Source: Chloroflexia bacterium (GTDB taxonomy: Bacteria; Chloroflexota; Chloroflexia; DTKN01). Taken from it: DNA of 64,000 nucleotides. Shown here in pieces: positions 7,488 through 42,825 of this stretch. The stretch's first letter is position 1, and each line of letters starts with the position of its first letter. The position numbers and the translations under genes are program-made. Under the pieces are notes generated by a model. That model saw only the letters and a list, made by a program, of their open reading frames with translations, was not told where the DNA came from and made no database searches. Location: the NCBI GenBank assembly GCA_034436115.1, contig DAOTVY010000045.1:15072-79071 (forward strand), in the 5' to 3' direction.

Positions 7488-7557
7488 ATGGGCCGGCCAG
7501 CTGGAGGCGCCCTGGCATAGAGGTGGTTTACGATCAGGACGGATCAGGAGGTAGGCC

Positions 7558-7983: not shown

Positions 7984-8026
7984 GGTCGCACGGGATCGAG
8001 GAAGAACCCCGAAAAAGGAGGACCCT

Positions 8027-8998: not shown

Positions 8999-9001
8999 AC
9001 C

Positions 9002-25753: not shown

Positions 25754-26946
25754 GCGGCTGACTCCCGAATGCGTTCTCCGAACGCGCGGCCGAATGCCAC
25801 CGCACGGGCACGTTCCTCCATCGAAGGCCGCCAGGCAAAAGCCAGCCCTTCCTGTACCACCTCGATGCCCGCTTCCTGCAGCGCTTTCTCGATCAGCGGC
25901 ACCGCCCCACCTCCCCAACCATGCGAGCCAAAGGCCGCCCCGATCTTGCGCACTGGCTTGAGGCCGATCAGATCCTCCAGGAGCGCGCTCACGTTCAGCA
26001 GCGGACGACGGTTGTGCGTCGCTGAGCCGATCGCAATTCCCCGCGCCTCGAGCAGGTGGCCAACCACCGTTGTGTGGTCCGTCTGCGGCACGGCAAAGAG
26101 CTGCACCTCCACCCCGCTTTGCTGAATTCCCTCCGCGATGGCGTGGGCCATTCGGGCCGTGCTTCCCCACATCGTCTCGTAGACGACGATCGCCCGCGCG
26201 GGTGCCTCTCCCCGTGCCCAGCGCAGGTACTGCTCTACAATCTGCCCGGCTTCTTTCCGCCAAATCACCCCGTGGCTGGGAGCGATCGTCTCGATGGTCA
26301 ACCCGAGCCGTTGCACCTCCTCGATCTTGCGCACGATCAGCGCGCTGAAAGGCGTGAGGATGTTCGCGAAATAGTTCCGGGCTTCTTCCCAAAGGACGGC
26401 AGGTTCGACCTCGTCGGCGAACCGGCAGCTCGAGGCCAGGTGCTGTCCAAAGGCGTCGTTGGGGAGAAGCAACCGGTCTTCCGGGATGTAGGTGAACATG
26501 GAATCCGGCCAATGGAGCATCGGAGCCTCAAGAAAGGTCAGCGTCTTATGGCCCAGAGGGATCGTATCCCCGGTGCCCACCACGCGGTGCGGCCACCCGT
26601 CGCCCAGGTATTTTCCGAGCGATTCGCTCGCCCGCTTGCTGTGCACCAAGACGGCGTTCGGTGCACGAGCCAGCACCGCCGGAATCGCTCCGGAGTGGTC
26701 CAGTTCGCTGTGGTTCGCCACCACATAGTCGATGCGCGATGGATCCACTACCTCTGAGATCCGCGCGAACATTTCCTCCTCAAACCCCGGCAGCACGGTG
26801 TCCACGAGCGCCACCCGCTCGTCGACGATCAGGTAAGCGTTGTACGAGGTCCCCCGGTGCGTGTGGTAGGTGTAGCCGTGAAAGTGGCGCACCTCCCAGT
26901 CCACCGCGCCCACCCAATAGACGCCCTCAGCAATCGTTACCGCCAT
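25735..26946 (-). CDS. Flavodiiron protein (FprA-type; metallo-beta-lactamase-like domain plus flavodoxin domain)
   Basis: 404 aa from MAVTIAEGVYWVGAVDWEVRHFHGYTYHTHRGTSYNAYLI. HSELDHSG di-iron ligand motif. C-terminal flavodoxin-like domain. AAGGAGG RBS. Confidence 0.8.
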   Translation of the reverse strand: MAVTIAEGVYWVGAVDWEVRHFHGYTYHTHRGTSYNAYLIVDERVALVDTVLPGFEEEMFARISEVVDPSRIDYVVANHSELDHSGAIPAVLARAPNAVLVHSKRASESLGKYLGDGWPHRVVGTGDTIPLGHKTLTFLEAPMLHWPDSMFTYIPEDRLLLPNDAFGQHLASSCRFADEVEPAVLWEEARNYFANILTPFSALIVRKIEEVQRLGLTIETIAPSHGVIWRKEAGQIVEQYLRWARGEAPARAIVVYETMWGSTARMAHAIAEGIQQSGVEVQLFAVPQTDHTTVVGHLLEARGIAIGSATHNRRPLLNVSALLEDLIGLKPVRKIGAAFGSHGWGGGAVPLIEKALQEAGIEVVQEGLAFAWRPSMEERARAVAFGRAFGERIRESAAQSEPV

Positions 26947-28467: not shown

Positions 28468-28595
28468 CCACAGGCTCCTTACAGGGCCTTTGTTAATTCC
28501 AAGATACTACACTCGAACCCCTTTGTCAAGTCAGGCGGGGCTCCGCTTTACGGCAGCGGAACCCCGCCGAATCCCGGATATGCCCCTGACCGGAG

Positions 28596-30629
28596 CTAAG
28601 CAGAGGGAAGCGAAGCGGCCAGGATCTCGGACAGATCGTAGACGCAGACCTTTTCCTCCAGCCCCTTTACCTTTACCGCGTCGTCCAGCATACTCAGGCA
28701 ATAGGGGCAGGCGACGGCAACCGCACTGGCCTCAGCGGCCTCGAACTCGCGCAGCCGCACCTGGTTCACGCGCTTGTCCGGCTCTTCCTCCATCCACATC
28801 TTGCCCCCGCCTCCCCCGCAGCAGAGCGCTCGGCGACCGCGGTGAACCGCCTCCACCGGCACAAGGCCCGGAACACGCTCCAGCAGCTGCCTGGGCTCGG
28901 CCACCACGCCGTTGTAACGGGCCAGATAGCATGGGTCGTGGTATACCGTAGGCCCCTTGGTCCACGCTTCTTGGGGCTGCAGCCGGCCCGCCTCCACCAG
29001 ACGCAGCAGATACGTGCTGTGGTGCTCGACGGAGAAGGTGCCGCCAAACTGGGGGTACTCGTTTTTCAGCGTATTGTATCCGTGGGGGCAGGCAGTCACA
29101 ATCGTCCGGAAACGGTACGACTTCAATGTCTGGACGTTCGTCTGGGCCAGCGTCTGAAAGAGGTATTCCTCACCCGCGCGGCGCGCCCAGTCCCCACAAC
29201 ATTGCTCCTCGTCGCCCAGGGCGGCAAAGGTCACCCCCGCGCGCTGCAGCAGCTGGGCCACCGTCCGTACCACCTTCTGGTTCCGGGGGTCGTAAGCGCC
29301 CGCGCACCCGACCCACAGGAGCACCTCCGCCTCGCCCACGTCGGCCATGAGCGGCACACCCAGCCCCTCAGCCCACTGCATCCGCCCGCCGCGCTGGCCG
29401 TAAGGGTTCCCCGCGCGCTGCGTCCTGTCCAGCGCCGCGCGGAGCGATCCAGGGATCTGTCCGCTACAAAGCGACAGGTATCGGCGTAGCTCGACGATCG
29501 TGCCGATATGGTCGATCAGCACCGGGCAGCGTTCCATGCAGGCCATACACGTCGTGCAGGACCAGAGGCTTTCCTCAGCCACAACGCCGCCGGCAAGCTC
29601 CAGGTCCTCGCGTTCGAACTTCCTCCCGCGAGCGCCCACGAGGGGTACACGCCCGCGCTGGAGCATGAAGGCATCCAGATCCAGGATCACCTGGCGCGGG
29701 GAAAGCGGCTGACCGGCCAGGAAGGCCGGACAGACGTCCTGGCAACGCCCGCAACGGGTGCACGATTCATAGTCGAGCAGCCGCTTTCTGGGGAGGTGCG
29801 CCAGCTCCGCCGCGCCCAACACCTCGGCCTCCTCGAGGTTCGGGATCATCGGAAGCGCCGCCTGCGTCTCCAACGGCGCAAAAAAGGCGTTCAATGGGTT
29901 CGTCACTAGGTGGAAGAGGCGCGTATAGGGGATGAGGGCGATGAAGCCGAGCGCCATCACGGCGTGCACCCACCATAGGACACGGTGGGCGACCAGGGCG
30001 CCCGGGCCCGTTGCGCCAAGGGCGGAAATCAAGCTGGCCAAGGCATATCCGACGAAGGACGAGCTCCCCCAAGGCGGTTGCTGGACCGCAAGCCGCAGCC
30101 CCTCGAGCAGATAGCCACCGACCCCCAGGAAGAGGAGCAGCAGCAGGACCAGGAGGTCATCCGGGCGGTTCTCCAGGCGCGCCGGCCGGAGGAGGTAGCG
30201 CCGCACGATCGCCAGCACCACGCCCAGAAGGAAAACCAGGCCCATCAAGTCCAGGACGGCTTCCGTCCCCAGGTAGAACGAGCCCCGCATGTAGTGCAGA
30301 CGGAAGAGCGGCCCCACGACGTCGTCGTTGAAAAAGATGAGCACGGTGCCCACGAAAAGCAGCAGGAAACCGAAGAAAAGCGTCAGGTGCATCAGGCCAG
30401 GGAAAACCTCGTTGGCCACCTTGACCTGCCCCAGGGCATAGACCAGCAGGTTCCACAGCCGTCGACCGAAGCGGTCGCACCGCAGGTCGGGTTGTCCCTG
30501 TCTCCAAAGGGAGATCCGCCGGTACAAGCCGTAGCCGAAGAACCCCAGGGCCACGGCCAACCCGACATAGAGCAAGATCTGGGTCCAGGGCTGGGGCATG
30601 TTCCAAAACGATTCACGCACGGGTTCCAT
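28596..30629 (-). CDS. Membrane-bound FeS oxidoreductase (N-terminal NarI/HdrE-like TM domain, 2x[4Fe-4S] ferredoxin, 2xCCG domains), ETF-linked
   Basis: 677 aa. About 6 N-terminal TM helices. CTRCGRCQDVCP and CTTCMACMERCP ferredoxin motifs. CCG-type Cys clusters. Located directly downstream of etfA. Confidence 0.7.
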   Translation of the reverse strand: MEPVRESFWNMPQPWTQILLYVGLAVALGFFGYGLYRRISLWRQGQPDLRCDRFGRRLWNLLVYALGQVKVANEVFPGLMHLTLFFGFLLLFVGTVLIFFNDDVVGPLFRLHYMRGSFYLGTEAVLDLMGLVFLLGVVLAIVRRYLLRPARLENRPDDLLVLLLLLFLGVGGYLLEGLRLAVQQPPWGSSSFVGYALASLISALGATGPGALVAHRVLWWVHAVMALGFIALIPYTRLFHLVTNPLNAFFAPLETQAALPMIPNLEEAEVLGAAELAHLPRKRLLDYESCTRCGRCQDVCPAFLAGQPLSPRQVILDLDAFMLQRGRVPLVGARGRKFEREDLELAGGVVAEESLWSCTTCMACMERCPVLIDHIGTIVELRRYLSLCSGQIPGSLRAALDRTQRAGNPYGQRGGRMQWAEGLGVPLMADVGEAEVLLWVGCAGAYDPRNQKVVRTVAQLLQRAGVTFAALGDEEQCCGDWARRAGEEYLFQTLAQTNVQTLKSYRFRTIVTACPHGYNTLKNEYPQFGGTFSVEHHSTYLLRLVEAGRLQPQEAWTKGPTVYHDPCYLARYNGVVAEPRQLLERVPGLVPVEAVHRGRRALCCGGGGGKMWMEEEPDKRVNQVRLREFEAAEASAVAVACPYCLSMLDDAVKVKGLEEKVCVYDLSEILAASLPSA

Positions 30630-30660
30630 CGGGGTGTCCTCCTCGAAGCCCCAGCGGCCC

Positions 30661-31680
30661 CTACTTGCCCAACCTCTCCTTGAGCGCCTTGGTCAGCGCG
30701 GGGACAATCACCTTGAGGTCGCCCACGATCCCATAGTCGGCGAGCTGAAAGATCGGCGCCTCCGGGTCCTTGTTGATGGCCACGATGTAGCGCGAACCGC
30801 GCATGCCGGCCACATGCTGGATGGCCCCGGAAACGCCGCAGGCGATGTAGAGGTCCGGGCGCACGGTGACCCCGGTCTGCCCCACCTGATGTGGATATGA
30901 GATCCACCCCTGGTCGACAGCCGAGCGGGATGCCCCTACCGCGCCGCCGAGCAGATCAGCGAGTTCCTGTAGCGGGCGGAACCCCTCCGCGCTGCCCACG
31001 CCACGGCCCCCGGCGACGATCACCTTCGCCTCGGTCAAGTTGACACCCCCCTCCTCGCGCAGCACCTCCAACACGCGGGTGGGGATCGCCTCCTCGGGAA
31101 GGGCCGGCGGGACCGCGATCACCTCGCCCGTGCGCGAGGGGTCGGGCACTGCCGCTTCGTAAACGCGCGGCCGGACGGTCACGATCTGGGGCCTTTGGGT
31201 CGGGATGGCCACCGTCGCCAAGACGTTTCCGCCCATAGCCGGCCGCGTGGCCCGAAGCAGCCGGCCTTCTACGTCGAGCTCGAGCGAAGTGCAGTCCGCC
31301 GCCACGCCGGTCTCAAGCTCTGCAGCTGCCATCGCGGCCAAGTCCCGTCCGCGGGTGGTGGCGCCCAGGAGGACGATCTCCGGGCAGTGTTCCCGGATCA
31401 GGCGTACGAGGAGCGCTGCCGCCGCTTCCGCGCGGAAGGAAGCAAACGTCGGGTCATCGGCCACGTAGGCCACGTCTGCGCCGCGCGCCACGGCTTCCCG
31501 GGCGAGCGCTTCCACCCCGTCGCCCGCGACCACGGCGGCGAGCGGTACACCCAGGGCATCCGCAAAGCGCCGTCCCTGTCCCAGGAGCTCCCAGGAAACG
31601 GTGTGGGCCACGCCGCCTTCCTGCTCGACCCAGACCCAAACGCCACGCCAGTTCGTCGGATCGTGCGGTTGAAGGACCAT
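30661..31680 (-). CDS. etfA: Electron transfer flavoprotein alpha subunit
   Basis: 339 aa. C-terminal FAD-binding region (YIACGVSGAIQHVAGM...) typical of EtfA. Confidence 0.85.
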   Translation of the reverse strand: MVLQPHDPTNWRGVWVWVEQEGGVAHTVSWELLGQGRRFADALGVPLAAVVAGDGVEALAREAVARGADVAYVADDPTFASFRAEAAAALLVRLIREHCPEIVLLGATTRGRDLAAMAAAELETGVAADCTSLELDVEGRLLRATRPAMGGNVLATVAIPTQRPQIVTVRPRVYEAAVPDPSRTGEVIAVPPALPEEAIPTRVLEVLREEGGVNLTEAKVIVAGGRGVGSAEGFRPLQELADLLGGAVGASRSAVDQGWISYPHQVGQTGVTVRPDLYIACGVSGAIQHVAGMRGSRYIVAINKDPEAPIFQLADYGIVGDLKVIVPALTKALKERLGK

Positions 31681-31692
31681 GGGAGCCTCCTC

Positions 31693-32502
31693 TCAGAGGA
31701 TCTTGAGACCGAGCAGCCGATCGGCCAGAGCGGCCGCCTGTTCCTCGGGGGTTGCGCCGCCGATCAGCTCCACTTTCCCGGCGCGTGCCGGTGGGTACTC
31801 CACCCGAAGCACGCGGCTCGGGGAACCTTGCAGGCCGAATCCCGCCGGGTTCGCTCCCGCCGCGACCAGATCGGCCGCCGTCCAAACCGGAACCGGCATC
31901 TTGGACGCCTTTCGGATCCCTAGAAGCGTGGGATAGCGCGGCTGGTTGATGTCTTTGACCACGCTCACCGCCGCTGGGAGCGAGCTTTCCACCACCTCGC
32001 GCCGGCCCTCGAGCAGTCGCTCCACCACGATCTTGCGGCCCACGGGGTCGAGCGAGCGCACCTTGAAGACGAAGGTTAGCGCCGGAATCCCAAGGAAGCG
32101 GGCCACGGCCGGTGCCACCAGCCCGGTCGTCCCGTCCGTAGACTGCTTGCCGAAGAAGACCAGGTCAAAGTCGCCGATCTTGCGGATCGCCTGAGCCAGG
32201 GTATAGGCGGTAGACCAGGCATCCGCACCTTCGAACTGGGGATCGGACAAGAGGATGGCCTCGTCGACCCCCATGGCGAGCGCCTTCTTCAGCGCCTCGG
32301 TCGCTTCCGCGGGGCCCATGGACAGGGCGGTCACCTTGCCACCGAACTTTTCCCGCGCGAGCAGCGCCTCCTCGATGGCGTACTCGTCAAAGACATTCAC
32401 CATCGTCGGCATTCCGGCCAGCAAAAGCTCCCCGCGCGCTGTGTCGACCTTGACCGGGGCCTCCGTGTCCGGCACCTGCTTGATGCAGACGATCGCGTGC
32501 AA
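31693..32502 (-). CDS. etfB: Electron transfer flavoprotein beta subunit
   Basis: 269 aa. MHAIVCIKQVPDTE N-terminus typical of EtfB. Confidence 0.85.
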   Translation of the reverse strand: MHAIVCIKQVPDTEAPVKVDTARGELLLAGMPTMVNVFDEYAIEEALLAREKFGGKVTALSMGPAEATEALKKALAMGVDEAILLSDPQFEGADAWSTAYTLAQAIRKIGDFDLVFFGKQSTDGTTGLVAPAVARFLGIPALTFVFKVRSLDPVGRKIVVERLLEGRREVVESSLPAAVSVVKDINQPRYPTLLGIRKASKMPVPVWTAADLVAAGANPAGFGLQGSPSRVLRVEYPPARAGKVELIGGATPEEQAAALADRLLGLKIL

Positions 32503-32563
32503 TGGGACCTCCTTTCGGGGATCCCCTTCCCTCCCGCTTGCGGGGAGGGAAGGGGGAAAAGCC

Positions 32564-33787
32564 TTATAGTTGCTGAGCTCCCCAGCGGTAGGGGAGGTAA
32601 TCGTTGCCCAGGATCTCGCGGGCGATGATCAGCCGCATGATGTTCGTCGTGCCCTCCGCGCCGATGGAGTAGGAGCGCACGCCCCGGATGCCCATTTCGA
32701 TCGGGAACTCCTTGGAATAGCCGGCGGCCCCGAACCAATCCGCGACCTCGTTCATGGCCTGCCAGGCATAGATCGGCGCGCGCAGCTTGGCCATGGCGGC
32801 CGCCCGGGCGACGTCGAACGCCGTAGCCGATTTGTCCTGCCACATTTTGTCCATCAGCCAGGCGGCCTTGTAGGTGAGCAGCCGGGCCTCCTCGATGTTC
32901 GTGGCGTGCTCCGCCAGCGGGAACTGCACCCCTTCGAAGGCCGCGATCGGCCGGCCGAAGGCATAGCGCTGCTTGATGTAGTCGATGCCCATCTCCAGCA
33001 CCGCTTCGGCTGCGCCGACACAGGTGGCGCCGATGAGCACGCGCGCGGCGGAAAAGCCCTCCATCGCGTAGTAGAAGCCCCGACCCTCTTCGCCGATGCG
33101 GTTCTTGTCGGGCAGGAAAACGTCTTCCAGGGTAAAGCCCCCGGTCGAGATCCCAGCCCGACCCATGTCCTCGATGAGGGTGGTGGAGATTCCGGGGGTG
33201 TCCTTCAGCGGCACAGCAAAGAAGGTGAACCCACGGTGGCCGGCCTTCGGATCCGTGCGACAGAGCGTCATGTGGATGCCACCGAGCCGCTTCGACTCGG
33301 CGACGCCCGAGATGTACATCTTTTCCCCGTTGAGCACCCACCCGTCGCCCTTGCGCTCGGCCTTGGTCCGCGTAGCCCCCAGGATGTCCGAGCCGCCCGA
33401 GGGCTCGGTGGTGGCGATGCCCAGGAAAGCCTCCCCCCTGGTCACGCGCGGGAGGATCTCCTGCTTCAGTTCGGGGCTGGCGTAGTGGTCAAAGACGGAG
33501 CCCCAGGAAGCCATCACCAGGAAGAGGACCGGGATCGCCACGCTGATGTCCGCCCGGCCGAGTTCCTCGGCCGCGATGGCCGCCTCCATCCAGGAAGCGC
33601 CCATCCCGCCGTACTCCTCCGAGACGGTGCAGGCCAGCAGGCCCAGGTCCGCCATTCCCTTGATGACCTCATCTGGGATCTTGCCCTCTTCGTCCATCTT
33701 GCGCACGATCGGTTTGATCACGCTCTGGGCGAAATCCCGCACCGAGGCGCGCCACATCTCCTGTTCTTTGGTAAACGCGAAGTCCAT
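32564..33787 (-). CDS. Acyl-CoA dehydrogenase
   Basis: MDFAFTKEQEMWRASVRDFA... with overall ACAD similarity (GLL/GATEP-like motifs). AAGGAGAAGG RBS. The ORF-track ORF extends to 33838. Confidence 0.85.
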   Translation of the reverse strand: MDFAFTKEQEMWRASVRDFAQSVIKPIVRKMDEEGKIPDEVIKGMADLGLLACTVSEEYGGMGASWMEAAIAAEELGRADISVAIPVLFLVMASWGSVFDHYASPELKQEILPRVTRGEAFLGIATTEPSGGSDILGATRTKAERKGDGWVLNGEKMYISGVAESKRLGGIHMTLCRTDPKAGHRGFTFFAVPLKDTPGISTTLIEDMGRAGISTGGFTLEDVFLPDKNRIGEEGRGFYYAMEGFSAARVLIGATCVGAAEAVLEMGIDYIKQRYAFGRPIAAFEGVQFPLAEHATNIEEARLLTYKAAWLMDKMWQDKSATAFDVARAAAMAKLRAPIYAWQAMNEVADWFGAAGYSKEFPIEMGIRGVRSYSIGAEGTTNIMRLIIAREILGNDYLPYRWGAQQL

Positions 33788-33857
33788 GGCCTTCTCCTTT
33801 CTGGACTGCCAGCGTCCCCCCTCGGGGACTTCGAACACCTTCTTGCCAGGGCCCAGG

Positions 33858-35219
33858 TCACGTCGCGGAAACCGGCCCCACCGTGGCCTGGCCCAGTAGG
33901 GCCACGCCCGCCTCGAGGGCAGCCAGGTTTTCCCGGGCGACCTCGGCCTTTTGTCCCACTGTGATCGCTTCGCGCAGCGCCTCCAGCGGAAGCAGCCCGG
34001 TATCGCCTACCAGCGCCGCCAGCGCCATCATCGCCTGGTCCTTCTTCCCCACCGACGCCAGCGCAAGCGGCACCAGCTGTGCTTCGGTCTCCACCGGAAG
34101 GAGGTCGCTGCGGATGTAGAGGCGCGCCTGCGGCCCAAGGCGTTCGAGCGTCCGCCGCGCCACCTTCAGCCCCTCAGGCGCCAGCACGAGCATGAGATCG
34201 GGGGAGGGAATCCCCGTGTAATGGATCTCCTCGAGGCTGAGGATCACCTCGGAGACCGAATGGCCCGTTTGCACGGTCACCGGGTAGTCGTCCCGCTGGG
34301 TCGCCCAAAGTCCCGCGAGCACGGCCGCTCGACCCAGGATCGTTGCTGTCGAGCGGATCTTCTGGCCGGCCGCCCCGGCGATGACGATATGCGTCTTCTT
34401 GCGAACGCCGCTTTCGTACCGCGTCGGGAGAGGCTGAGGGGATAGCACGCGTTGGCCCGCCTGCGCGGCCACGAGCTCGCGATACGCGCGGCTATACTCA
34501 GCACGCTCCTCGCGGTGGACAATCCCTCGGCTCAAGCCACGTTCCGCCATCGCGGCCTCCAGGCCACGGCGCGTCAGCCGGTTGCTGGGGACAAAGTAAG
34601 CGGTGCACAGTTCCCAGATGTCAAAGAAAGCGAACCCTTCTCCCGCGATCGCCTCCGCGATCCAGTCGCTCAGCTCGGGGTCGAAGGCGGTCGCGCGAAC
34701 CACCAACCGGCCGCCGCTGGCGGCGACGATGCCGCATAGATCGAGCGGGTACTCGAGGTTGCCCAGGCGGGTAGTCGCCGTTGTGGCCCCATGCGGCGTG
34801 GTCACCGAGTGCTGGCCGCCGGTCATGCCAAAGTTAAAGTTGTTCAACAGGAGGACCGTGATCCCGATATTGCGGCGGGCCGCGTTGATCAAGTGATGGC
34901 CACCGATCCCTGCCCCGCCATCCCCCATGATGACCACCACTTTGAGGTCGGGGTTGGCCAGCTTGATCCCACTGGCGTAAGTGACGGAACGCCCGTGGAG
35001 CCCGTGGAAGGCATTGGTGATAAAGTACTGGTCGGACAACCCCGAACAGCCGATGTCGGAGACGATCACCACCTTGCGCGGATCGAGCTGGAGGCGCACT
35101 AGGGCTGCGTTCAGCCGGTCCAACACCAGGCCGTGGCTACAGCCCGGGCAAAACGGGTAGGGCAGGCGGGTGGGATCGAGGTAGGTCGGCCACCGGAGTT
35201 CGCTTTCCACAGCTTCCAT
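33858..35219 (-). CDS. 2-oxoacid:ferredoxin oxidoreductase TPP-binding beta subunit fused to a gamma-like C-terminal domain
   Basis: CPGCSHG...GDGG TPP-binding motifs, with a C-terminal domain resembling KOR/POR gamma. GGAGGAGG RBS before the ATG at 35219; a TTG at 35231 is an alternative start. Confidence 0.7.
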   Translation of the reverse strand: MEAVESELRWPTYLDPTRLPYPFCPGCSHGLVLDRLNAALVRLQLDPRKVVIVSDIGCSGLSDQYFITNAFHGLHGRSVTYASGIKLANPDLKVVVIMGDGGAGIGGHHLINAARRNIGITVLLLNNFNFGMTGGQHSVTTPHGATTATTRLGNLEYPLDLCGIVAASGGRLVVRATAFDPELSDWIAEAIAGEGFAFFDIWELCTAYFVPSNRLTRRGLEAAMAERGLSRGIVHREERAEYSRAYRELVAAQAGQRVLSPQPLPTRYESGVRKKTHIVIAGAAGQKIRSTATILGRAAVLAGLWATQRDDYPVTVQTGHSVSEVILSLEEIHYTGIPSPDLMLVLAPEGLKVARRTLERLGPQARLYIRSDLLPVETEAQLVPLALASVGKKDQAMMALAALVGDTGLLPLEALREAITVGQKAEVARENLAALEAGVALLGQATVGPVSAT

Positions 35220-35237
35220 CGCCTCCTCCAACGCCTC

Positions 35238-36356
35238 TCAGCGCAGGTGGGCCAGGATCTCCTGGGGCGTGATCAGCTCGCCATCCACCCGGTGCACCCC
35301 CACCACTTCGATCCCACGTGCGGCCGCCAACCGCTCGACCTCCAGGCGGTACTGGCCGAGGTTGAGCTCCGCTACGACGACTCGCTCGATCCCTTCGCAC
35401 GCCTCGAGGATGGCGCGCTCGGGTACCGGCCAAAGCGTCAGGACGGTAAGCGCCGAGACCTTTTGCCCATCCTTACGCGCCAGGGCGACCGCCTCGGCCA
35501 TCGCCCGAGCGGTGGTGCCGTAGCTCAGCAACAGTGTCCGTGCGCCCGGCTCCAGATCTGCCTTGACCATCGCGATCTCGTCGCGATAGGCATCGATCTT
35601 GGCGGCCAGGTGTCGGTTCAGCCGCTCTACCTTCGCGGGATCCTTGGTCAGATAGCCAAACTCGTCGTGGGTGGACGTGGTAAAGCGGACGATGTGTGGG
35701 CCCCCGATGGGAGAAAAGAGCGGCACATCCTCGAGGGCCGCGATCCGATAGGGGACAAACGCTGCATCGGGCGGAGCATACCGGCGCGAGGTCACCGGAA
35801 CTGGTTCGTAGGCCGCGACATCGACCGTCGCCCGGGTGAGCACCATTTCCTTATCGGTCGCCAAGAAGACCGGAGTGCGAAACCGCTCCGCAAGGTTAAA
35901 GGCGTGGATGGTGAGGCTGTAGCATTCGGGGATTGTGCTGGGGGCGAGGGCAATGATCGGGTAGCCTCCTGAGGTGCCCCAGCGGAGGAACTGCACGTCG
36001 CCCTGGGCCACTGTGGTGGCGCCCCCGGTGGCCGGCCCCATCCGCTGGCAATCGACGATCACCAGGGGGACCTCGCCCATGACCGCCAGACCGATGTTCT
36101 CGCTATAAAGGCTGATGCCTGGGCCAGAAGTCGCTGTCATCGCCTTGCGACCAGCCATCGCCGCCCCGATGCACAGCCCCAGGGAAGCGATCTCGTCCTC
36201 GGCCTGGATCGCGACCCCCCCAACCTTCGGGAGTTCCCGTAACATATGCACCAGGATACCGGAAGCAGGCGTGATCGGGTAGCCGGCGAAAAAGTCGCAA
36301 CCTGCCGCCAGCGCTCCCCGAGCAATCGCCTCGCTACCGTCGATAAACTCGCGCAT
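35238..36356 (-). CDS. 2-oxoacid:ferredoxin oxidoreductase alpha subunit
   Basis: MREFIDGSEAIARGALAAGCDFFAGYPITPAS is the typical KorA/PorA N-terminus. 373 aa. Confidence 0.75.
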   Translation of the reverse strand: MREFIDGSEAIARGALAAGCDFFAGYPITPASGILVHMLRELPKVGGVAIQAEDEIASLGLCIGAAMAGRKAMTATSGPGISLYSENIGLAVMGEVPLVIVDCQRMGPATGGATTVAQGDVQFLRWGTSGGYPIIALAPSTIPECYSLTIHAFNLAERFRTPVFLATDKEMVLTRATVDVAAYEPVPVTSRRYAPPDAAFVPYRIAALEDVPLFSPIGGPHIVRFTTSTHDEFGYLTKDPAKVERLNRHLAAKIDAYRDEIAMVKADLEPGARTLLLSYGTTARAMAEAVALARKDGQKVSALTVLTLWPVPERAILEACEGIERVVVAELNLGQYRLEVERLAAARGIEVVGVHRVDGELITPQEILAHLR

Positions 36357-36410
36357 GTTCCTCTCCGCTCCGGGATACACGCACCGGAACGCATTCGACG
36401 CAACCGTGGG

Positions 36411-37352
36411 CTAGCGACGCTGGAAGCGTGCTTCCCGCTTTTCCAGGAAAGCGGAGGTGCCCTCGTTCTTGTCCTCGGTGGCACAGATCAGGCCGAACTG
36501 CGCTGCTTCGAAGGCACAGGCTTTTTCGAGCGTGGTTTCCGCCCCGGTGCGTAGGCAACGCTTGGCCACCTCCACGGCGATGGGGCCGTTTCTGAGGATC
36601 TGTTCGGCCATCTCGCGTGCCGCGCTCAGCGCCGTGTTTGGGGCACCGGGGTTGCAGGTGTGGCAGTATCCCCATCGATCGAGCGGAGCGCCGCACTGCG
36701 CACAAACGGTCACCGGCTGTCCACAATTGGGACAGTGCGCACCGTGCTCGCAGGGCGTCCCCCGACAGGGGTTGCCCGGCATCTCCTGGCCGCACCGGTG
36801 GCACACGACCCGGTCGACAAGCCCGATGGACTTTGCCTCCAGGGCGGAGATTTGCTCCCCGGTGAGCACCAATCGCATGGCTTGGCCCATCCCCACGAGC
36901 CGGGGCAGGCGCTGTGACCCACCAAAGCCGGGGATCAGCCCGAGCTTGACCTCCGGCTGCCCCAGACGGGCGTTGTCCGAGGCGATGCGGATGTCGCCCG
37001 CCATAGCGAGCTCACACCCCCCACCCAGAGCGAAACCGTTCACCGCCATGAGCACCACGAGCCGCGAGTTCTCCATCTCGAAGAACAGCTGCTCCGCACG
37101 CCGGCACATCCATTCCCCCGTTTCGGGGGTGAGCAGCCTTAGCTCGTTGATGTCCGCACCGGCGACGAACGACTTGGGACCTGCTCCAGTCAGGATCAAT
37201 ACCCGAACCGACTCCTGGGCCTGGACCTCGTGGAAAGCCGAGATCAGCTCGCCGACCGTGGCGTGGTTGAGGGCATTGAGCACTTTGGGGCGATTGATCG
37301 TGATGACGGCCACCTCGCCGTCGACCTCGAGCGCGATGTTCTCGTAGACCAT
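36411..37352 (-). CDS. Enoyl-CoA hydratase/isomerase (crotonase) carrying a ~55-aa zinc-ribbon-like insertion with multiple CxxC pairs
   Basis: ITINRPKVLNALN...GGGCELAMAGD crotonase core. Insertion VCHRCGQEMPGNPCRGTPCEHGAHCPNCGQPVTVCAQCGAPLDRWGYCHTCNPGAP lies between the catalytic core and the C-terminal helices (approximately nt 36639-36803). Confidence 0.75.
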   Translation of the reverse strand: MVYENIALEVDGEVAVITINRPKVLNALNHATVGELISAFHEVQAQESVRVLILTGAGPKSFVAGADINELRLLTPETGEWMCRRAEQLFFEMENSRLVVLMAVNGFALGGGCELAMAGDIRIASDNARLGQPEVKLGLIPGFGGSQRLPRLVGMGQAMRLVLTGEQISALEAKSIGLVDRVVCHRCGQEMPGNPCRGTPCEHGAHCPNCGQPVTVCAQCGAPLDRWGYCHTCNPGAPNTALSAAREMAEQILRNGPIAVEVAKRCLRTGAETTLEKACAFEAAQFGLICATEDKNEGTSAFLEKREARFQRR

Positions 37353-37459
37353 CGCTTCCTCCTCCGTTGGCTGGGAGCACCTGCGCACCTGGCGGCCATT
37401 ATACCCGATTTCCGCCGTTTGGCAACTCTCTACGGCAGAACGTGAAGGATCACACAATA

Positions 37460-37488
37460 TTGACAGCGCCGCCCAAACGCGCTATAAT
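37460..37488 (+). promoter_or_regulatory. Consensus promoter TTGACA-N17-TATAAT for the gntR operon
   Basis: Perfect hexamers with a 17-nt spacer, read directly. Lies in the divergent intergenic region between the crotonase operon and gntR. Confidence 0.55.
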
Positions 37489-37494
37489 GTAAAT

Positions 37495-37520
37495 ATGATA
37501 TATCGTATACAGTATATCAT
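37495..37520 (+). promoter_or_regulatory. AT-rich palindromic operator candidate ATGATATA-tcGTATACag-TATATCAT at about +1 of the gntR promoter
   Basis: 8-bp perfect inverted-repeat arms flank a GTATAC core, matching the GntR/FadR-type GT-N-AC operator logic. A 26-bp AT-rich island in a 67% GC genome. Confidence 0.5.
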
Positions 37521-37547
37521 ATCTGAGCCCTCCGGAGGCGTCTCTCC

Positions 37548-38216
37548 ATGGCCGATGGGTTGCCCCGTCTCGAACAACCGCCCTCGCTGAAGGACCGTGC
37601 CTACGACACCATCAAGCAAGCCATCCTGACCTTGCAACTGAAACCGGGCCAGCCCCTGGTGGAACACGAGCTCGCCCGTCAGCTCGGAATCAGCAAGACC
37701 CCAGTGCGCGATGCCCTACAGGAACTGGAGCGCGAAGGGTTCGTCACCCGCGTCCTGTTCAAAGGGACCTATGTCACCGAAGTGACGATGAAGGACTTGC
37801 GGGAGATCTTTCAGCTGCGTGCCGTCCTGGAAGGGCTCGCCGCCCGGCTCGCTGCTCCCCGCTTTACCCCACAGGAGCTGGACGAACTGGAACATCACCT
37901 CGCCCTCTCCGAAGAGGCTCTGGCCGCGGGCGACCGCGCTCGCTGCTCCCGCTTGGGCCAGACCCTCCACAACGCGATCATCGAAAAGGCGGACAACACC
38001 CGCCTGACCTTGATCATCCGCAACCTGGATGACCACGTCCAGCGCTTCCGCGCCCTCTCGGACCAGATCAGCGGCCGACTGAACAAATCGGTGCGCGAGC
38101 ACCGCCGCATCCTGCAGGCGCTACGGCGTTGCGACCCGGATGCGGCTGAGCAGGCGGTCCGGGATCACCTGTTCAGCGTGTTGGACGACCTGAGCGCTTC
38201 TTCGGAGGAGGAGTAG
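37548..38216 (+). CDS. GntR-family transcriptional regulator, FadR subfamily (winged HTH plus FCD domain)
   Basis: LKPGQPLVEHELARQLGISKTPVRDALQELEREGFV is the GntR HTH; the C-terminal FCD domain is all-helical. Confidence 0.8.
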   Translation: MADGLPRLEQPPSLKDRAYDTIKQAILTLQLKPGQPLVEHELARQLGISKTPVRDALQELEREGFVTRVLFKGTYVTEVTMKDLREIFQLRAVLEGLAARLAAPRFTPQELDELEHHLALSEEALAAGDRARCSRLGQTLHNAIIEKADNTRLTLIIRNLDDHVQRFRALSDQISGRLNKSVREHRRILQALRRCDPDAAEQAVRDHLFSVLDDLSASSEEE

Positions 38217-38217
38217 C

Positions 38218-39945
38218 ATGCGACTGACGGGAGGGCAGGTGGTCGTCGAGATGCTGCGCGCCCACCAGGTGCGTTACCTTTTCGGCGTGCCCGGGGAGAC
38301 CAGCCTGGCCTTCTACGATGCCCTCTGTACGGGCCAGGATGCCCCGAAACATATCCTGGCTCGGGACGAACGCAGCGCCGCCTATATGGCCGATGTCTAC
38401 GCTCGTATCTCCTATCGTCCAGGGGTATGCGAAGCACCGAGCGGTGCTGGAGCAACCTACCTGGCCTCTGGCCTGGCCGAACCGCACGCCTCCTCGATCC
38501 CGGTGGTTGCCCTGACTTCCGATACCCCATTGGCGCAGGAAGAGCGCAACGTGCTGACCGCGTTGGATCAGCCAGGCCTCTTTGGGTCCATCAGCAAGTG
38601 GCGGGCGCTGGTCAAGGAGGCGAGCCGTATCCCGGATGCCATGCGCACGGCCTTTCGCCTGGCGACGAGCGGCCGGCCCGGCGCCACCGTGGTCATCCTG
38701 CCCTCGGATGTGCTGGCGGCCTCCTGCGAAGACCCGGGGCTGACCGGCGATACGCGCTGCGCCGTATATCCTGCCTACCCCGTGCGGCCCGATCCCGAGG
38801 CTGTGGAACAGGCTGCCCAGCAGCTCGTGCGTGCCGAGCGGCCGGTCATCGTGGCCGGAGGCGGCGCGGTGAGCGCGCGCGCCTGGGCGCAGCTCACCGC
38901 CCTGGCAGAAGCGCTCCAGGCACCTGTGGGGACTTCCATCTGCGGCAAAGGGGCCATCGCGGAGGATCACCCCCTCGCCCTGGGGGTCGTGGGCGGAAAC
39001 GGGGCTCGCCCCTACGCGAACAACTTGCTCCGGCAAGCCGACCTGATCCTTTTCGTCGGGTGCAAGACCGACTCGGTGACGACCCTGGGATGGACCCTTC
39101 CTGCACGGGGCTCTCCCCCCTCCCTGATCCACCTGGATGTCGATCCAGCCGAGATCGGGCGGAACTACCCGACCACGGTTGGCCTGGTGGGCGACGCCCG
39201 GTTGGGGCTGGCCGACCTCCTCGCGGCGTTACCGCGCCGCTTTCGCGGCCGGCGGGAGTGGCTGGCCGGCCTGGAGCAAGAACGGCAGCGCTTCTGGGCT
39301 GACTTTGCCGCCCGGGCAGCTTCCACGGAGCGGCCGATCCGGCCCCAGCGCGTCATCGAATGCCTGACCCGCCTGCTTCCCCGGGACGCCATCCTGGTTG
39401 CCGATGCCGGAACGCCCACCCCGTTCAGCGCGGCGTATTACCCCTCGCCGGCCGGCCGGCATGTCGTGATTCCCCGCGGCTATGGCGGCCTGGGCTACGC
39501 GATCCCCGGCGTGGTGGGAGCCAAACTCGCCCGCCCCGAAGCCACCGTGGTGGGGCTGATGGGGGACGGCAGCTTCGGCATGAGCGCCGGGGAGCTGGAG
39601 ACCGTAGCCCGCCTCGGGCTCCCCGTGCTCATCGTCCAGTTCAACAACGCCTGCTTCGGTTGGATCAAGATCTCGCAATGCCTGGAATACGGCGGGCGAG
39701 CCTTCGGGGTCGACTTTTCCGCCGAAACAGACTATGCGGCGATCGCTCGCGGATTCGGATTGGCCGGGTTCCGGGTGGAAGACCCGGAGGAACTAGAGAA
39801 GGCACTGCGCGAAGCCTTGACTTGCGGCCGGCCGGCGTTCGTGGACGTCGTGACCGCGTGCGAGACCGTCGAGGTGCCGCCGGTAGAAAAGTGGCAGCGT
39901 GCCTGGGCCGGGCAAGAACCGGCCGAGCGTCTGCAGGAGGGATGA
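38218..39945 (+). CDS. Thiamine-pyrophosphate-dependent enzyme (acetolactate-synthase-like fold; substrate unknown)
   Basis: 575 aa. N-terminal Pyr domain (YLFGVPGE) and C-terminal TPP-binding motif (GDGSFGM...N). Starts 2 nt after the gntR stop. Confidence 0.75.
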   Translation: MRLTGGQVVVEMLRAHQVRYLFGVPGETSLAFYDALCTGQDAPKHILARDERSAAYMADVYARISYRPGVCEAPSGAGATYLASGLAEPHASSIPVVALTSDTPLAQEERNVLTALDQPGLFGSISKWRALVKEASRIPDAMRTAFRLATSGRPGATVVILPSDVLAASCEDPGLTGDTRCAVYPAYPVRPDPEAVEQAAQQLVRAERPVIVAGGGAVSARAWAQLTALAEALQAPVGTSICGKGAIAEDHPLALGVVGGNGARPYANNLLRQADLILFVGCKTDSVTTLGWTLPARGSPPSLIHLDVDPAEIGRNYPTTVGLVGDARLGLADLLAALPRRFRGRREWLAGLEQERQRFWADFAARAASTERPIRPQRVIECLTRLLPRDAILVADAGTPTPFSAAYYPSPAGRHVVIPRGYGGLGYAIPGVVGAKLARPEATVVGLMGDGSFGMSAGELETVARLGLPVLIVQFNNACFGWIKISQCLEYGGRAFGVDFSAETDYAAIARGFGLAGFRVEDPEELEKALREALTCGRPAFVDVVTACETVEVPPVEKWQRAWAGQEPAERLQEG

Positions 39946-39946
39946 A

Positions 39947-41227
39947 ATGCCCAGGGTCGTTGTCGTTGGAGGCGGGTGGGCTGGCTGCGCTGCGGCATTG
40001 GCCGCCCGTAAAGCGGGCGCCGAGGTGATCCTGATCGAGCGTACCGATTGCCTGCTCGGCACAGGATTGGTCGGTGGGATCATGCGCAACAACGGCCGCT
40101 TCACGGCCGCGGAGGAGATGATCGCCATGGGCGGAGGCGATCTTTTCCTCCTGGCAGACCATGTGGCCCGACACACGAACGTCGAGTTCCCCGGCCATAA
40201 GCACGCCACGCTGTACGATGTTGCCCTCATGGAGCCTACTGTCCGTCGCTACCTGATCGAGCAGGGCGTGCAGCTATGGATGATGGCGCGCGCCACCAAC
40301 GTGGAAAAGGCCGATGGGCGGCTCCAAGCCGTGGTGCTGGAATCCGGCGAACGGGTAGAAGGCGACGTCTTTGTCGAGGCGACGGGGACCGCGGGGCCGC
40401 AGGGAAACTGCCGCCGCTACGGGAACGGCTGCGCCATGTGCATCCTGCGCTGTCCGAGCTGGGGAGGCCGCGTCAGCATCGCCGCCTGCGCGGGCGTCCA
40501 GGAGATGATGGGCCGCCGCGCCGATGGTTCGATCGGCTCGATGAGCGGCTCGTGCAAGCTGCACAAGGACTCTGTCCACCCCGATCTGGTGGCCGAACTG
40601 AACCGTACCGGGGTTGCTATCGTTCCCATCCCCAAGGAGCTGGTACACGCGGAAAAACTGTCCATCAAGGCTTGCCAACAGTATGCCTTGCCCGAGTTCG
40701 CCGAAAACCTGGTACTCCTGGACACCGGACACGTGAAACTGATGACCTCTTTTTACCCCCTGGAGGAGTTGCGCCGCATCCCCGGCATGGAAAACGCGCG
40801 CTACGAGGATCCTTATGCCGGAGGCAAGGGCAACTCGATCCGCTACCTTGCGCTTTCGCCCCGCGACGACACGTTGCGCGTACAGGGGCTGGAAAACCTC
40901 TTCTGCGCTGGGGAAAAGGCCGGCCTGCTGGTGGGGCATACGGAAGCGATTGGCACCGGCACGCTGGCCGGACACAACGCGGTGCGCTACGCTCTGGGCC
41001 TTCCCTTGCTCACCCTGCCCCGGAGCACCGCGGTCGGAGATGCCATCGCTTTCGTCCGCGAGGAGATGCAGACGCCCGAAGGGATGACACGCAAGTATAC
41101 CTTCTCCGGCGCGGTCTACTTCGAGCGCATGAAACAACTCGGGTTGTATACCACGGACGTCGCCGCAATCCGCCAGCGGGTCGAGGCCGCTGGCTGCGCC
41201 GGGATCTTCGCCCGCCGGTTGCCCTGA
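39947..41227 (+). CDS. FAD-dependent oxidoreductase with Cys-rich motif
   Basis: MPRVVVVGGGWAGCAAAL (GxGxxG dinucleotide-binding fold). Cys cluster CRRYGNGCAMCILRC. AGGAGGG RBS. Starts 2 nt after the TPP-enzyme stop. Confidence 0.6.
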   Translation: MPRVVVVGGGWAGCAAALAARKAGAEVILIERTDCLLGTGLVGGIMRNNGRFTAAEEMIAMGGGDLFLLADHVARHTNVEFPGHKHATLYDVALMEPTVRRYLIEQGVQLWMMARATNVEKADGRLQAVVLESGERVEGDVFVEATGTAGPQGNCRRYGNGCAMCILRCPSWGGRVSIAACAGVQEMMGRRADGSIGSMSGSCKLHKDSVHPDLVAELNRTGVAIVPIPKELVHAEKLSIKACQQYALPEFAENLVLLDTGHVKLMTSFYPLEELRRIPGMENARYEDPYAGGKGNSIRYLALSPRDDTLRVQGLENLFCAGEKAGLLVGHTEAIGTGTLAGHNAVRYALGLPLLTLPRSTAVGDAIAFVREEMQTPEGMTRKYTFSGAVYFERMKQLGLYTTDVAAIRQRVEAAGCAGIFARRLP

Positions 41228-41365
41228 GCGGCCGGCGGGCGTGGTCGTTTTGGGGTCCGGACTGCCCATCTGGGCGCTCAGAGAAGGAGGTGCCTATCGA
41301 GGTCGGGCGACAAGAGATCTACCCCATAGGATGGCCGCGCTGAAACCGACAAGGAGGAGAATCCC

Positions 41366-42757: not shown

Positions 42758-42825
42758 CGAGAAGAGGGTGGCCTGGCCCCTGGTTCAGGGGCCAGGCCAC
42801 CCTCAGATGGAGACGGGAGGGCACC

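Follow-up and report, generated by a model that had tools for sequence, protein, structure and literature searches.

A seven-gene operon of a Chloroflexia bacterium that joins a 2-oxoacid:ferredoxin oxidoreductase, acyl-CoA oxidation genes, a bifurcating-like electron transfer flavoprotein and an EtfD-type membrane protein

Results

A seven-gene operon on the minus strand

The stretch of DNA analysed here, called the window below, comprises 64 kb of contig DAOTVY010000045.1 from a Chloroflexia bacterium, and the subject of this study is a set of seven minus-strand genes at positions 28596-37352. In the order of transcription these encode a crotonase (enoyl-CoA hydratase, ECH), the alpha subunit (KorA) of a 2-oxoacid:ferredoxin oxidoreductase (OFOR), an OFOR beta subunit fused to a gamma part (KorBG), an acyl-CoA dehydrogenase (ACAD), the small (EtfB) and large (EtfA) subunits of an electron transfer flavoprotein (ETF) and a membrane iron-sulphur (FeS) protein of the EtfD type (Table 1). 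The same set is returned by Pfam, by NCBIfam and by the independent public gene call of an identical contig (JGI 3300009503 Ga0123519_10000565), and the view of the genome given here is that of one contig. Identical or near-identical copies of the operon proteins occur in metagenome-assembled genomes (MAGs) labelled 'Chloroflexia bacterium'.

The gaps between the genes, read from crotonase to EtfD, measure 54, 18, 70, 61, 12 and 31 nt (6-70 nt when the longest open reading frames, ORFs, are taken), and a GGAGG-type ribosome-binding site lies upstream of all seven start codons. Four promoter-like sites were observed in the region against 0.8 expected; a sigma-70-like site stands 5' of the crotonase gene, and a terminator-like hairpin follows the EtfD stop codon, beyond which the gene that comes next has a promoter-like site of its own. 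With Rfam, the operon and its surroundings gave no RNA element, the sole match in the window being a tRNA. An initial annotation of this DNA, made from its letters, had described seven minus-strand genes with gaps of 6-70 nt, their arrangement as an operon, their domain content and the fusion of the OFOR beta and gamma parts. Domain scans and gene call bear this out, and the seven-gene operon is confirmed in every particular. Hidden Markov models assigned none of its genes to an unrelated pathway, and the FeS protein does contain CCG/HdrD-like domains.

Table 1. Features of the operon, of its flanks and of the rest of the window (a point in the strand column marks a feature without orientation)
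Feature	Position	Strand	Remarks
Crotonase (short-chain enoyl-CoA hydratase)	36411-37352	-	313 aa, operon gene 1; ECH_1 6.8e-64
Insert in crotonase	36642-36803	-	54 residues (184-237), 10 Cys in CxxC-type pairs; Pfam and PDB matches split at one point
OFOR alpha (domains I + II)	35238-36356	-	372 aa; POR_N 1.6e-54 and PFOR_II
OFOR beta (domain VI) fused to gamma (domain III)	33858-35219	-	453 aa; TPP_enzyme_C and POR
ACAD	32564-33787	-	407 aa; all three ACAD domains
EtfB/FixA-like ETF small subunit	31693-32502	-	269 aa
EtfA/FixB-like ETF large subunit	30661-31680	-	339 aa; ETF and ETF_alpha
EtfD/EMO-type membrane FeS protein	28596-30629	-	677 aa, last gene; NarI-like membrane part (Nitrate_red_gam), Fer4 (2x[4Fe-4S]), 2 CCG
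C478/G517 swap in cluster D1 of EtfD	29079-29198	-
Operon promoter-like site, TTGCCA-16-TATAAT	37398-37425	-	sigma-70-like, 11/12 consensus; about 40 nt 5' of crotonase ATG
Terminator-like GC-rich hairpin	28527-28576	-	3' of EtfD stop; -35.2 kcal/mol, z = -5.24, 0/200 shuffles fold as well
GntR/FCD (FadR-subfamily) regulator	37548-38216	+	GntR 1.1e-17, FCD 9.5e-30; divergent from operon
gntR promoter-like site, TTGACA-17-TATAAT	37460-37488	+	12/12 consensus
AT-rich palindrome ATATGATATATCGTA/TACAGTATATCATAT	37493-37522	.	central GTATAC; candidate GntR operator, directly 3' of gntR -10 box
Acetolactate synthase (ALS)-like thiamine pyrophosphate (TPP) enzyme	38218-39945	+	no equivalog reached
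GIDA/FAD_oxidored-like protein	39998-41227	+	downstream of gntR
463-aa protein	41366-42757	+	no Pfam or NCBIfam match
60-aa zinc-ribbon-like ORF	42826-43008	+	downstream of gntR
DHA2-type MFS exporter	43161-44429	+	downstream of gntR
Flavodiiron protein	25735-26946	-	metallo-beta-lactamase/ODP and flavodoxin domains; two genes downstream of operon
Prismane/CooS-like protein	3100-5088	+	CODH/ACS cluster
ACS with CdhC	5104-7383	+	CODH/ACS cluster
Small ORF	7558-7983	+	inside CODH/ACS cluster
CdhD-like corrinoid FeS protein subunit	8027-8998	+	CODH/ACS cluster
CdhD + FeS, corrinoid FeS protein subunit	9002-10351	+	CODH/ACS cluster
DUF362 protein	742-1944		5' of CODH/ACS cluster
SIS protein	1969-2574		5' of CODH/ACS cluster
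tRNA gene	15452-15525	+	single
HEAT/PBS-lyase-repeat protein	44527-45657	+	376 aa
Very long ORF	50207-56314	+	2035 aa; gene-like codon-position GC (GC3 0.81)

The membrane FeS protein is an EtfD homologue

The product of the last gene matches the cryo-electron microscopy structure of Mycobacterium smegmatis EtfD (9OJN) over its full length (E 1.3e-98; residues 40-325 and 344-675), and the match takes in the membrane part together with the HdrC-like and HdrB-like (2 x CCG) soluble parts. When the published M. smegmatis ligand positions were mapped onto an alignment of 120 homologues, both haem b ligands, H81 and H240 (M. smegmatis His78 and His241), proved invariant in all 120, and the eight Cys of cubane clusters D3 and D4 and the six Cys/His ligand positions of the noncubane cluster D2 are kept in the window protein and, again, in 120 of 120. 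Five hydrophobic segments are in line with the five transmembrane helices of EtfD. The HdrD/CCG nature proposed for this protein in the initial annotation is therefore upheld, in the form of a full-length EtfD homologue that keeps the ligands of the haem and of D2-D4. EtfD-family proteins have been reported to pass the electrons of beta-oxidation from ETF to menaquinone, and the homologues or proposed equivalents cited by the EtfD authors are the Syntrophomonas wolfei DUF224 protein Swol_0698, Bacillus subtilis FadF, Pseudomonas aeruginosa DgcB and the protein of Agne et al. 2021. By homology, and by its adjacency to etfB-etfA, the window protein appears to be of the EtfD/EMO type, with a predicted role as ETF:menaquinone oxidoreductase (EMO); its gene follows directly after etfB-etfA, as in Syntrophomonas.

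With EtfD of M. smegmatis and M. tuberculosis (Rv0338c) the window protein shares a single chain, five membrane helices, the haem b His, two cubane sites and two CCG domains. It differs in lacking the disordered C-terminal tail of about 30 kDa seen in mycobacteria (677 versus 1042 aa) and in the ligands of cluster D1, for which the mycobacterial set, Cys503, 538, 581 and 584 with Thr539, served as the comparison. Three of these ligands are kept as C442, C477 and C514, whereas the Cys584 position is occupied by Gly517 and the Thr539 position by Cys478. This swap is present in 18 of 18 clade members; among the 102 other EtfD homologues Cys584 is retained in 101, and Cys stands at the 539 position in five. 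Judged from the alignment, the swap looks like a compensating return of the fourth ligand to the Hdr-type 'CC' position. FadF and DgcB, both accepted members of the family, are without the D1 Cys ligands and, because D1 varies in such accepted members, we treat the swap as a variant and not as grounds for exclusion from the EtfD family.

The core of the cluster is conserved in relatives

The window operon has the order ECH-KorA-KorBG-ACAD-EtfB-EtfA-EtfD beside a divergent GntR gene. Its first six genes are linked in relatives at 67-90% identity, even where their order is shuffled. They recur in the same order, with EtfD not adjoining and without GntR, in L085, L093/L099 and L096 (loci of relatives are given by L numbers); L001 and L094 show the window order as far as their short contigs reach; and L087 has KorA-KorBG-ECH-ACAD-EtfB-EtfA-EtfD, again without GntR. 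A sister lineage, whose crotonase carries a short form of the insert described below, has ECH-ACAD-EtfB-EtfA only. EtfD homologues of the clade are also found as stand-alone genes.

The clostridial unit for butyryl-CoA synthesis has the order crt-bcd-etfB-etfA(-hbd). From the arrangements in the clade and in the sister lineage, the ancestral unit would have had this clostridial-type order, crt-bcd-etfB-etfA; the OFOR pair appears to have been recruited in most relatives and kept through rearrangement, EtfD to have joined in two lineages and GntR only in that of the window. Set against the clostridial unit, the window operon is without hbd, carries the OFOR pair between crt and bcd and has EtfD appended.

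Similar pairings are seen in other loci. L005 carries a thiolase, an ACAD, a putative 3-hydroxyacyl-CoA dehydrogenase (from its N-terminal sequence only), ECH, a CoA-transferase, KorA, KorBG and an ACAD. The deltaproteobacterial locus L074 (5720-15144) consists of a DAO, an aldehyde dehydrogenase, KorA, KorBG (a beta-gamma fusion), EtfB, EtfA and ETF-QO, the last being a quinone reductase non-homologous to EtfD; OFOR and an ETF-to-quinone route have been paired here independently. L103 (6453-17189) encodes a D-2-hydroxyacid dehydrogenase, an orthologue of the window ACAD, EtfB, a PD-(D/E)XK nuclease lying between the etf genes, an EtfA with an N-terminal 2x[4Fe-4S] domain, separate OFOR alpha and beta subunits, a DUF362/Fer4 protein and a GntR-type gene. 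Finally, L101 (1-8549) has an ACAD orthologue (73% identity), a soluble HdrD-like CCG protein, EtfB, EtfA, a 655-aa FAD/FeS protein that looks HdrA-like by Pfam and a small ORF that looks MvhD-like by its sequence, which points to an electron module of a soluble ETF-Hdr type associated with this kind of ACAD.

The OFOR pair

OFOR alpha has the YPITP motif at residue 26, and OFOR beta has CPGC (24), GCSG (57), GDGG (99), NN (126-127) and ELCT (203), with C24, C27, C58, C205 and G99-D100-G101 invariant in 21 homologues. These motifs fit one [4Fe-4S] cluster and a thiamine-diphosphate site (GDG...NN), and the ferredoxin (delta) domain is absent. Because there is no built-in ferredoxin domain, an external free ferredoxin is the expected electron acceptor; a separate ferredoxin gene with the motif CxxCxxCxxxCP was not found in the 64-kb window. 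The two-subunit enzymes StOFOR (S. tokodaii, 5B46-5B48) and M. marinus OGOR (6N2N), as well as KGOR (8YS5), likewise have YPITP, GDG...NN and the four Cys and are without domain V, but in StOFOR and OGOR domain III stands at the N-terminus of alpha, whereas in the window enzyme it stands at the C-terminus of beta.

The beta-gamma fusion is found in 5653 proteins and, in a collection of one genome per species, in at least 598 matching stretches, the phyla including Chloroflexota, Planctomycetota, Acidimicrobiia, Gemmatimonadota, Acidobacteriota, Desulfobacterota and others. A literature search returned no description or characterised example of the alpha plus beta-gamma arrangement, though it is very common in genomes. 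In NCBIfam, alpha scored 410.2 against a cut-off of 411 for the generic NF006412, 314 against 579 for KorA and 239 against 399 for VorB, and beta 174 against 364 for KorB, so that no KOR, VOR, POR or IOR class was reached. The neighbourhoods of the family (35 loci, 132 neighbouring ORFs) have no dominant partner and contain scattered genes of tricarboxylic acid cycle (TCA)-like and acyl-CoA metabolism.

These neighbourhoods bear on the possibility that the operon encodes no shared pathway, an OFOR of central metabolism, acting on 2-oxoglutarate or pyruvate, simply being co-transcribed with a beta-oxidation unit. Among 80 loci drawn from numerous phyla, the alpha plus beta-gamma pair does mostly stand as a self-contained two-gene unit with mixed and partly TCA-type neighbours, and the nearest solved relatives of the window OFOR are 2-oxoglutarate enzymes (the best PDB matches of alpha are 1YD7 and KGOR 8YS5). 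Within the clade, however, the pair stays with the ECH, ACAD and ETF genes through rearrangement, it lies between crt and bcd and not at an edge of the cluster, and similar pairings occur independently in L005, L074 and L103. Furthermore, the position aligned with Lys49b of StOFOR, where a change to Ile abolishes the use of 2-oxoglutarate, is occupied by Leu in the window enzyme as well as in 90% or more of the OFOR family, in place of the Lys of StOFOR and the Arg of 8YS5 and thus of the 2-oxoglutarate-using relatives. The Leu gives a weak hint against a dicarboxylate substrate, and taken together we consider it quite improbable that the OFOR is a bystander.

The acyl-CoA dehydrogenase and the substrate

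The candidate catalytic Glu of the ACAD lies in an AEGT motif at residue 377, its position being predicted from the motif. No NCBIfam model reached its cut-off, the best being AcrC (262 of the 640 required), non-decarboxylating glutaryl-CoA dehydrogenase (250 of 470) and cyclohexanecarboxyl-CoA dehydrogenase (242 of 575), and the PDB matches, headed by 1UKW, SBCAD 2JIF, 5LNX, 3MPI and SCAD, range from 160 to 223 bits and take in MCAD-like, SBCAD, SCAD, non-decarboxylating GDH and Bcd proteins. Within this range the Bcd proteins of bifurcating complexes score 160-190 bits and SCAD, SBCAD and MCAD 198-223 bits. The orthologue group is large and tightly conserved, with at least 595 matches in metagenomes, the best 80 of them at 63-90% identity, and it is widespread there at 63-74% identity. 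Among its neighbours in sediment metagenomes (loci L100-L173) LarA-like 2-hydroxyacid racemases (Lar_N/LarA_C) are the most frequent, with 10 of 92 ORFs, and DAO-type flavoproteins, acyl-CoA synthetases, thiolases and other ACADs also occur, which is suggestive of 2-hydroxy- and 2-oxoacid metabolism, though not decisive.

The initial annotation had proposed a branched-chain or short-chain acyl-CoA/2-oxoacid module, with classification of the ACAD (IVD, BCAD or SCAD) and of the OFOR (Vor, Ior or Kor) by hidden Markov models as the check. All scores fell below the curated cut-offs, so that the branched-chain or short-chain class is a guess with weak hints. A short or branched 2-oxoacid, as opposed to a dicarboxylate, is weakly favoured.

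The crotonase and its Cys-rich insert

The best solved relative of the crotonase, by sequence and by fold, is C. acetobutylicum 5Z7R (TMt 0.95), and an alignment of 42 homologues shows no variation at its catalytic E114 and E134. The best NCBIfam match, to short-chain-enoyl-CoA hydratase, reaches 279 bits against a cut-off of 394, a shortfall that we attribute to an insert that splits the match.

This Cys-rich insert, which the initial annotation did not mention, is confined to about 27 protein clusters at 63% identity or more, forming one Chloroflexia clade; in two sister crotonase sequences it is shorter, with about 25-30 residues and six Cys, and the insert is missing from ordinary 260-aa crotonases and from all solved crotonases. 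It resembles a double zinc ribbon, for which Pfam gives only sub-threshold zinc-ribbon matches, among them a weak one to DZR (E 0.001). A search of 1.84 billion representative proteins with a 62-residue insert query returned four matches, of which the two inspected were repetitive and of low complexity, and showed no real relatives. AlphaFold models the insert with confidence, at a pLDDT of 78-94.

An ETF of probable bifurcating ancestry with an altered site

The ETF was placed by PDB bit scores and published motifs. Against bifurcating/confurcating ETFs (T. maritima EtfABCX, CarDE, A. fermentans, C. difficile and LctBC; 7KOE, 6FAH, 4KPU, 5OL2 and 7QH2) the large subunit scores 230-338 bits and against canonical ETFs 109-171 bits; the corresponding ranges for the small subunit are 144-190 and 71-96 bits. 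The individual scores of EtfA are 338 for 7KOE_B (4.6e-100, the best match), 328 for CarE, 287 for 4KPU, 265 for 5OL2 and 171 for human ETF, and its RPAMGG sequence keeps the Arg of the group-2 motif RPxFGG.

For the small subunit, five clade members were aligned with their three nearest non-clade relatives (from L103, L154 and L162; 55-57% identity) and with five solved bifurcating ETFs. The eight non-clade sequences agree without exception at 48 positions. Every one of the five clade members retains 34 of these, and at eight of them all five differ: R28 (to L/T), V31 (M/L), P37 (V/A), K50 (R), R88 (P/E), D125 (T/S), Q128 (L/S/I) and T229 (S). The three non-clade relatives, by comparison, jointly depart from the PDB-invariant set at just two positions out of 54. 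Seen as motifs, NPxD has its P replaced by V/A, SDR its R by P/E, and DGDTxQ has become DG(T/S)xx(L/S/I). R28 is the Arg of RxGV, the Val of which is M/L in the clade, and T229 lies in the GxxSPTxV loop; in T. maritima the RxGV Arg and the GxxSPTxV Thr contact or wrap the bifurcating FAD (Bf-FAD). For the remaining changed positions we found no published assignment to the flavin site. When the R. palustris small-subunit site residues D93, T94, T97 and V232 were aligned by motif, the position of T94 was Ala in all five clade members and Val in LctB. On these comparisons the window ETF appears to descend from bifurcating ETFs, part of the bifurcating site having changed in the lineage of the operon, and the clade-specific changes in EtfB fit a loss or alteration of NADH-linked bifurcation and a shift to plain carriage of electrons to EtfD.

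With such an ancestry, the operon might instead encode a ferredoxin-coupled complex resembling Bcd-EtfAB (5OL2, 4KPU), for which OFOR was recruited because of the shared ferredoxin and EtfD serves as an optional second outlet. Working reductively, the complex would convert enoyl-CoA, 2 NADH and oxidised ferredoxin to acyl-CoA and reduced ferredoxin, driving OFOR as a synthase or feeding the carbon monoxide dehydrogenase/acetyl-CoA synthase (CODH/ACS) encoded in the same window; working by confurcation, it would convert acyl-CoA, reduced ferredoxin (1:1 from OFOR) and 2 NAD+ to enoyl-CoA and 2 NADH. Confurcation has been described for the lactate dehydrogenase-Etf complex. This explanation would account for the closeness of the ETF to the solved bifurcating ETFs, for an order, crt-(kor)-bcd-etfB-etfA, that is that of the clostridial unit and in the sister lineage is exactly ECH-ACAD-EtfB-EtfA, for a crotonase closest to C. 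acetobutylicum Crt and for the clusters of L085, L093/L099 and L096, beside which EtfD is not found. Moreover, the ETF relatives in L103 (57-61% identity) adjoin an OFOR and carry an N-terminal 2x[4Fe-4S] domain as in the 396-418-aa CarE and LctC, and the host has a ferredoxin-dependent CODH/ACS. Gene order, Crt-like crotonase and bifurcating-type ETF are thus held in common with the clostridial complexes, but eight invariant positions of bifurcating ETFs, the RxGV Arg and the SPT Thr among them, are changed in every clade member, the crotonase has its 54-residue insert, and the ACAD is not specifically Bcd-like, being no closer to Bcd than to SCAD, SBCAD and MCAD. In addition, EtfD lies inside the operon in the window and in L087, and we estimate, taking the acyl-CoA couple to have an E0' of -10 mV, that confurcation in the oxidative direction to NAD+ would be strongly uphill. 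We therefore regard a complex of the Bcd-EtfAB kind as a serious but doubtful alternative.

The best match of EtfA to the large subunit of T. maritima EtfABCX also raises the question of whether EtfAB-EtfD is a counterpart of EtfABCX/FixABCX that oxidises NADH at the bifurcating flavin and sends one electron to menaquinone (via EtfD) and the other to ferredoxin, driving a carboxylating OFOR, its use by the ACAD and crotonase being incidental. In both systems an ETF is tied through FeS clusters to a membrane-associated menaquinone reductase, so that the EtfD path is of the same kind as that of EtfX/EtfC, and an OFOR without a ferredoxin domain of its own is found in the same operon. However, the quinone reductase of EtfABCX consists of EtfC and EtfX (a flavoprotein and a ferredoxin), genes for which are not present here, and not of an HdrD-like EtfD with haem b. 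The window operon adds ACAD and OFOR, the RxGV Arg is replaced along with the other Bf-site changes in EtfB, and the core kept in relatives is ECH-ACAD-EtfBA and not EtfBA-EtfD, the EtfD of the clade being often stand-alone as expected of a general ETF acceptor. A true EtfABCX counterpart consequently seems to us very unlikely.

The divergent GntR regulator

A FadR-subfamily gntR gene divergent from the operon had been noted initially, and GntR and FCD domains were both found in its product, for which the NCBIfam scan reached no equivalog. The gene is the first of its own transcription unit, its stop codon lying 1 nt before the ATG of an ALS-like TPP enzyme. The palindrome following its -10 box has 15-nt arms that are 87% complementary, is unique in the window with 0 matches expected by chance and is the only 30-mer in the 64 kb with 80% A+T or more; its GTATAC centre presumably fits GntR-family operators. 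The palindromic operator originally placed at the gntR +1 is thus a real palindrome at the start of gntR itself, with a candidate role as operator. From this position it could repress gntR itself together with the ALS-like TPP enzyme gene that follows.

With respect to the operon, the palindrome is located some 100 nt 5' of the predicted start. A repeat of the operator half-site, for which the initial annotation suggested a search on the crotonase side, was found neither there nor elsewhere in the 64 kb, and as only one palindrome was found there is no evidence for a shared operator. GntR is absent beside all orthologous clusters examined, and the idea that it is an integral and conserved part of the system was rejected for this reason. 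Control of the seven-gene operon by GntR, suggested by their divergent adjacency, is possible but unsupported; of the 'regulated' module first proposed, the FadR-type regulator is borne out. The genes 3' of gntR (38218-44429, plus strand) look like one unit.

Host setting and other genes of the window

The window also contains a CODH/ACS (Wood-Ljungdahl) cluster at 3100-10351 on the plus strand and, two genes downstream of the operon, a gene for a flavodiiron protein. The EtfD family works in aerobes too, for example in mycobacteria, and for this reason does not in itself imply anaerobic life; a reading of the operon as aerobic and mycobacterium-like, which EtfD could be taken to imply, was dropped once CODH/ACS had been found. 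It is the presence of CODH/ACS and flavodiiron genes in the same window that indicates an anaerobic setting, and this context backs the word 'anaerobic' in the initial annotation. The CODH/ACS cluster is noteworthy for a MAG labelled Chloroflexia; genes for a DUF362 protein and a SIS protein lie 5' of it. Elsewhere in the window are a HEAT/PBS-lyase-repeat protein and a very long ORF (Table 1).

Discussion

We propose that the operon encodes a catabolic module that converts a 2-oxoacid via acyl-CoA and enoyl-CoA to 3-hydroxyacyl-CoA, with the electrons going to ferredoxin and menaquinone. This oxidative model is the simplest one that uses every gene, and we give it an even chance of being right. 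The OFOR, composed of alpha and beta-gamma subunits, would oxidatively decarboxylate a 2-oxoacid in the presence of CoA to acyl-CoA and CO2, reducing free ferredoxin. The ACAD would then oxidise the acyl-CoA to 2-enoyl-CoA and hand its electrons to the ETF, from which they would pass through the CCG clusters, the two cubane clusters and the haem b of EtfD into the menaquinone pool. Finally, the crotonase would hydrate the enoyl-CoA to 3-hydroxyacyl-CoA. The model starts from what the sequences show, namely the seven genes with their operon signals and conserved linkage, the ligands for the EtfD cofactors, the catalytic residues of OFOR and of crotonase and a candidate catalytic Glu in the ACAD; from these we infer the oxidative direction, the identity of the OFOR product with the ACAD substrate and the docking of ETF on EtfD. 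It agrees with the independent pairing of this type of OFOR or ACAD with acyl-CoA oxidation genes in L005, L074 and L103.

Several observations weigh against the oxidative model. The potential of the acyl-CoA couple is -10 mV (an older value is -125 mV) and that of menaquinone -74 mV, so that the transfer from acyl-CoA to menaquinone is not downhill under standard conditions and needs a pull or an input of energy. The characterised partners of EtfD and DUF224 proteins are canonical ETFs, the mycobacterial ETF being homologous to mammalian ETF, i.e. of the canonical kind, and the S. wolfei ETF beside DUF224 having been reported as closer to group I, whereas the window ETF appears to be of bifurcating ancestry and scores about twice as high against bifurcating as against canonical ETFs. 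Most of the named residues of the Bf-FAD site are in fact kept (D94, T98, P228, V231 and the EtfA Arg), and EtfD adjoins the cluster in only two related lineages, those of the window and of L087. On the carbon side, neither 3-hydroxyacyl-CoA dehydrogenase nor thiolase was found among the window genes scanned, the nearest solved relatives of the OFOR use 2-oxoglutarate, and the OFOR neighbours are partly TCA-like, with isocitrate dehydrogenase at four and succinyl-CoA ligase at three of the 35 loci. The ACAD would not be expected to act on succinyl-CoA.

The initial annotation had associated the ETF and its neighbour with ETF:quinone electron transfer. The EtfD part of that proposal is borne out and the ETF part is not, in that the ETF is not of the canonical type that partners EtfD; since it lies near the bifurcating type and has undergone clade-specific remodelling, simple transfer from ETF to quinone is something that we infer and not a given. 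The kept site residues are compatible with a two-flavin ETF that may couple ferredoxin and NADH. A bolder variant is conceivable in which the operon forms a hitherto undescribed redox hub, its bifurcation-type ETF being fed by the ACAD and, via ferredoxin, by the OFOR, and passing electrons either to NAD+ by confurcation or via EtfD to menaquinone. We consider such a hub unlikely. If it did exist, low-potential ferredoxin would help to drive the uphill step from acyl-CoA to menaquinone, which would be an alternative to the reverse electron flow driven by proton-motive force in anaerobic fatty-acid oxidisers, and EtfAB-EtfD would join EtfABCX and FixABCX as a third type among the bifurcating ETF systems linked to quinone. 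The Cys-rich insert of the crotonase could in that case be a docking or metal-binding element.

All the part families of the operon are known already, as is the general idea of an acyl-CoA oxidation operon that is linked to an ETF and includes a membrane FeS oxidoreductase. New are the combination of an OFOR, an ETF of apparent bifurcating descent and EtfD in one operon, the changes at otherwise invariant ETF positions, the D1 swap in EtfD and the zinc-ribbon-like insert of the crotonase. The D1 swap (Hdr-like CC versus CxHC) is relevant to a recent observation on mycobacterial EtfD, in which an unusual cluster, a linear [3Fe-4S], was found. The ETFs of L103, L154 and L162, which keep the positions that are invariant in bifurcating ETFs, and those of the window clade, in which eight are replaced, form a natural variant series with which one could ask directly which residues confer bifurcation and whether conversion to a plain carrier for EtfD is feasible.

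Syntrophic and fermentative metabolism has long posed the question of how the electrons of acyl-CoA oxidation (about -10 mV) are delivered to menaquinone (-74 mV) or to acceptors of lower potential. Here a ferredoxin-reducing OFOR, an ETF of apparent bifurcating descent and an EtfD-type quinone reductase are brought together in one transcription unit, in a host that also has the Wood-Ljungdahl enzyme. If the oxidative model in its plain form is right, this is an ordinary though nicely complete catabolic operon; its value would be much higher if the ETF couples ferredoxin, NAD(H) and menaquinone.

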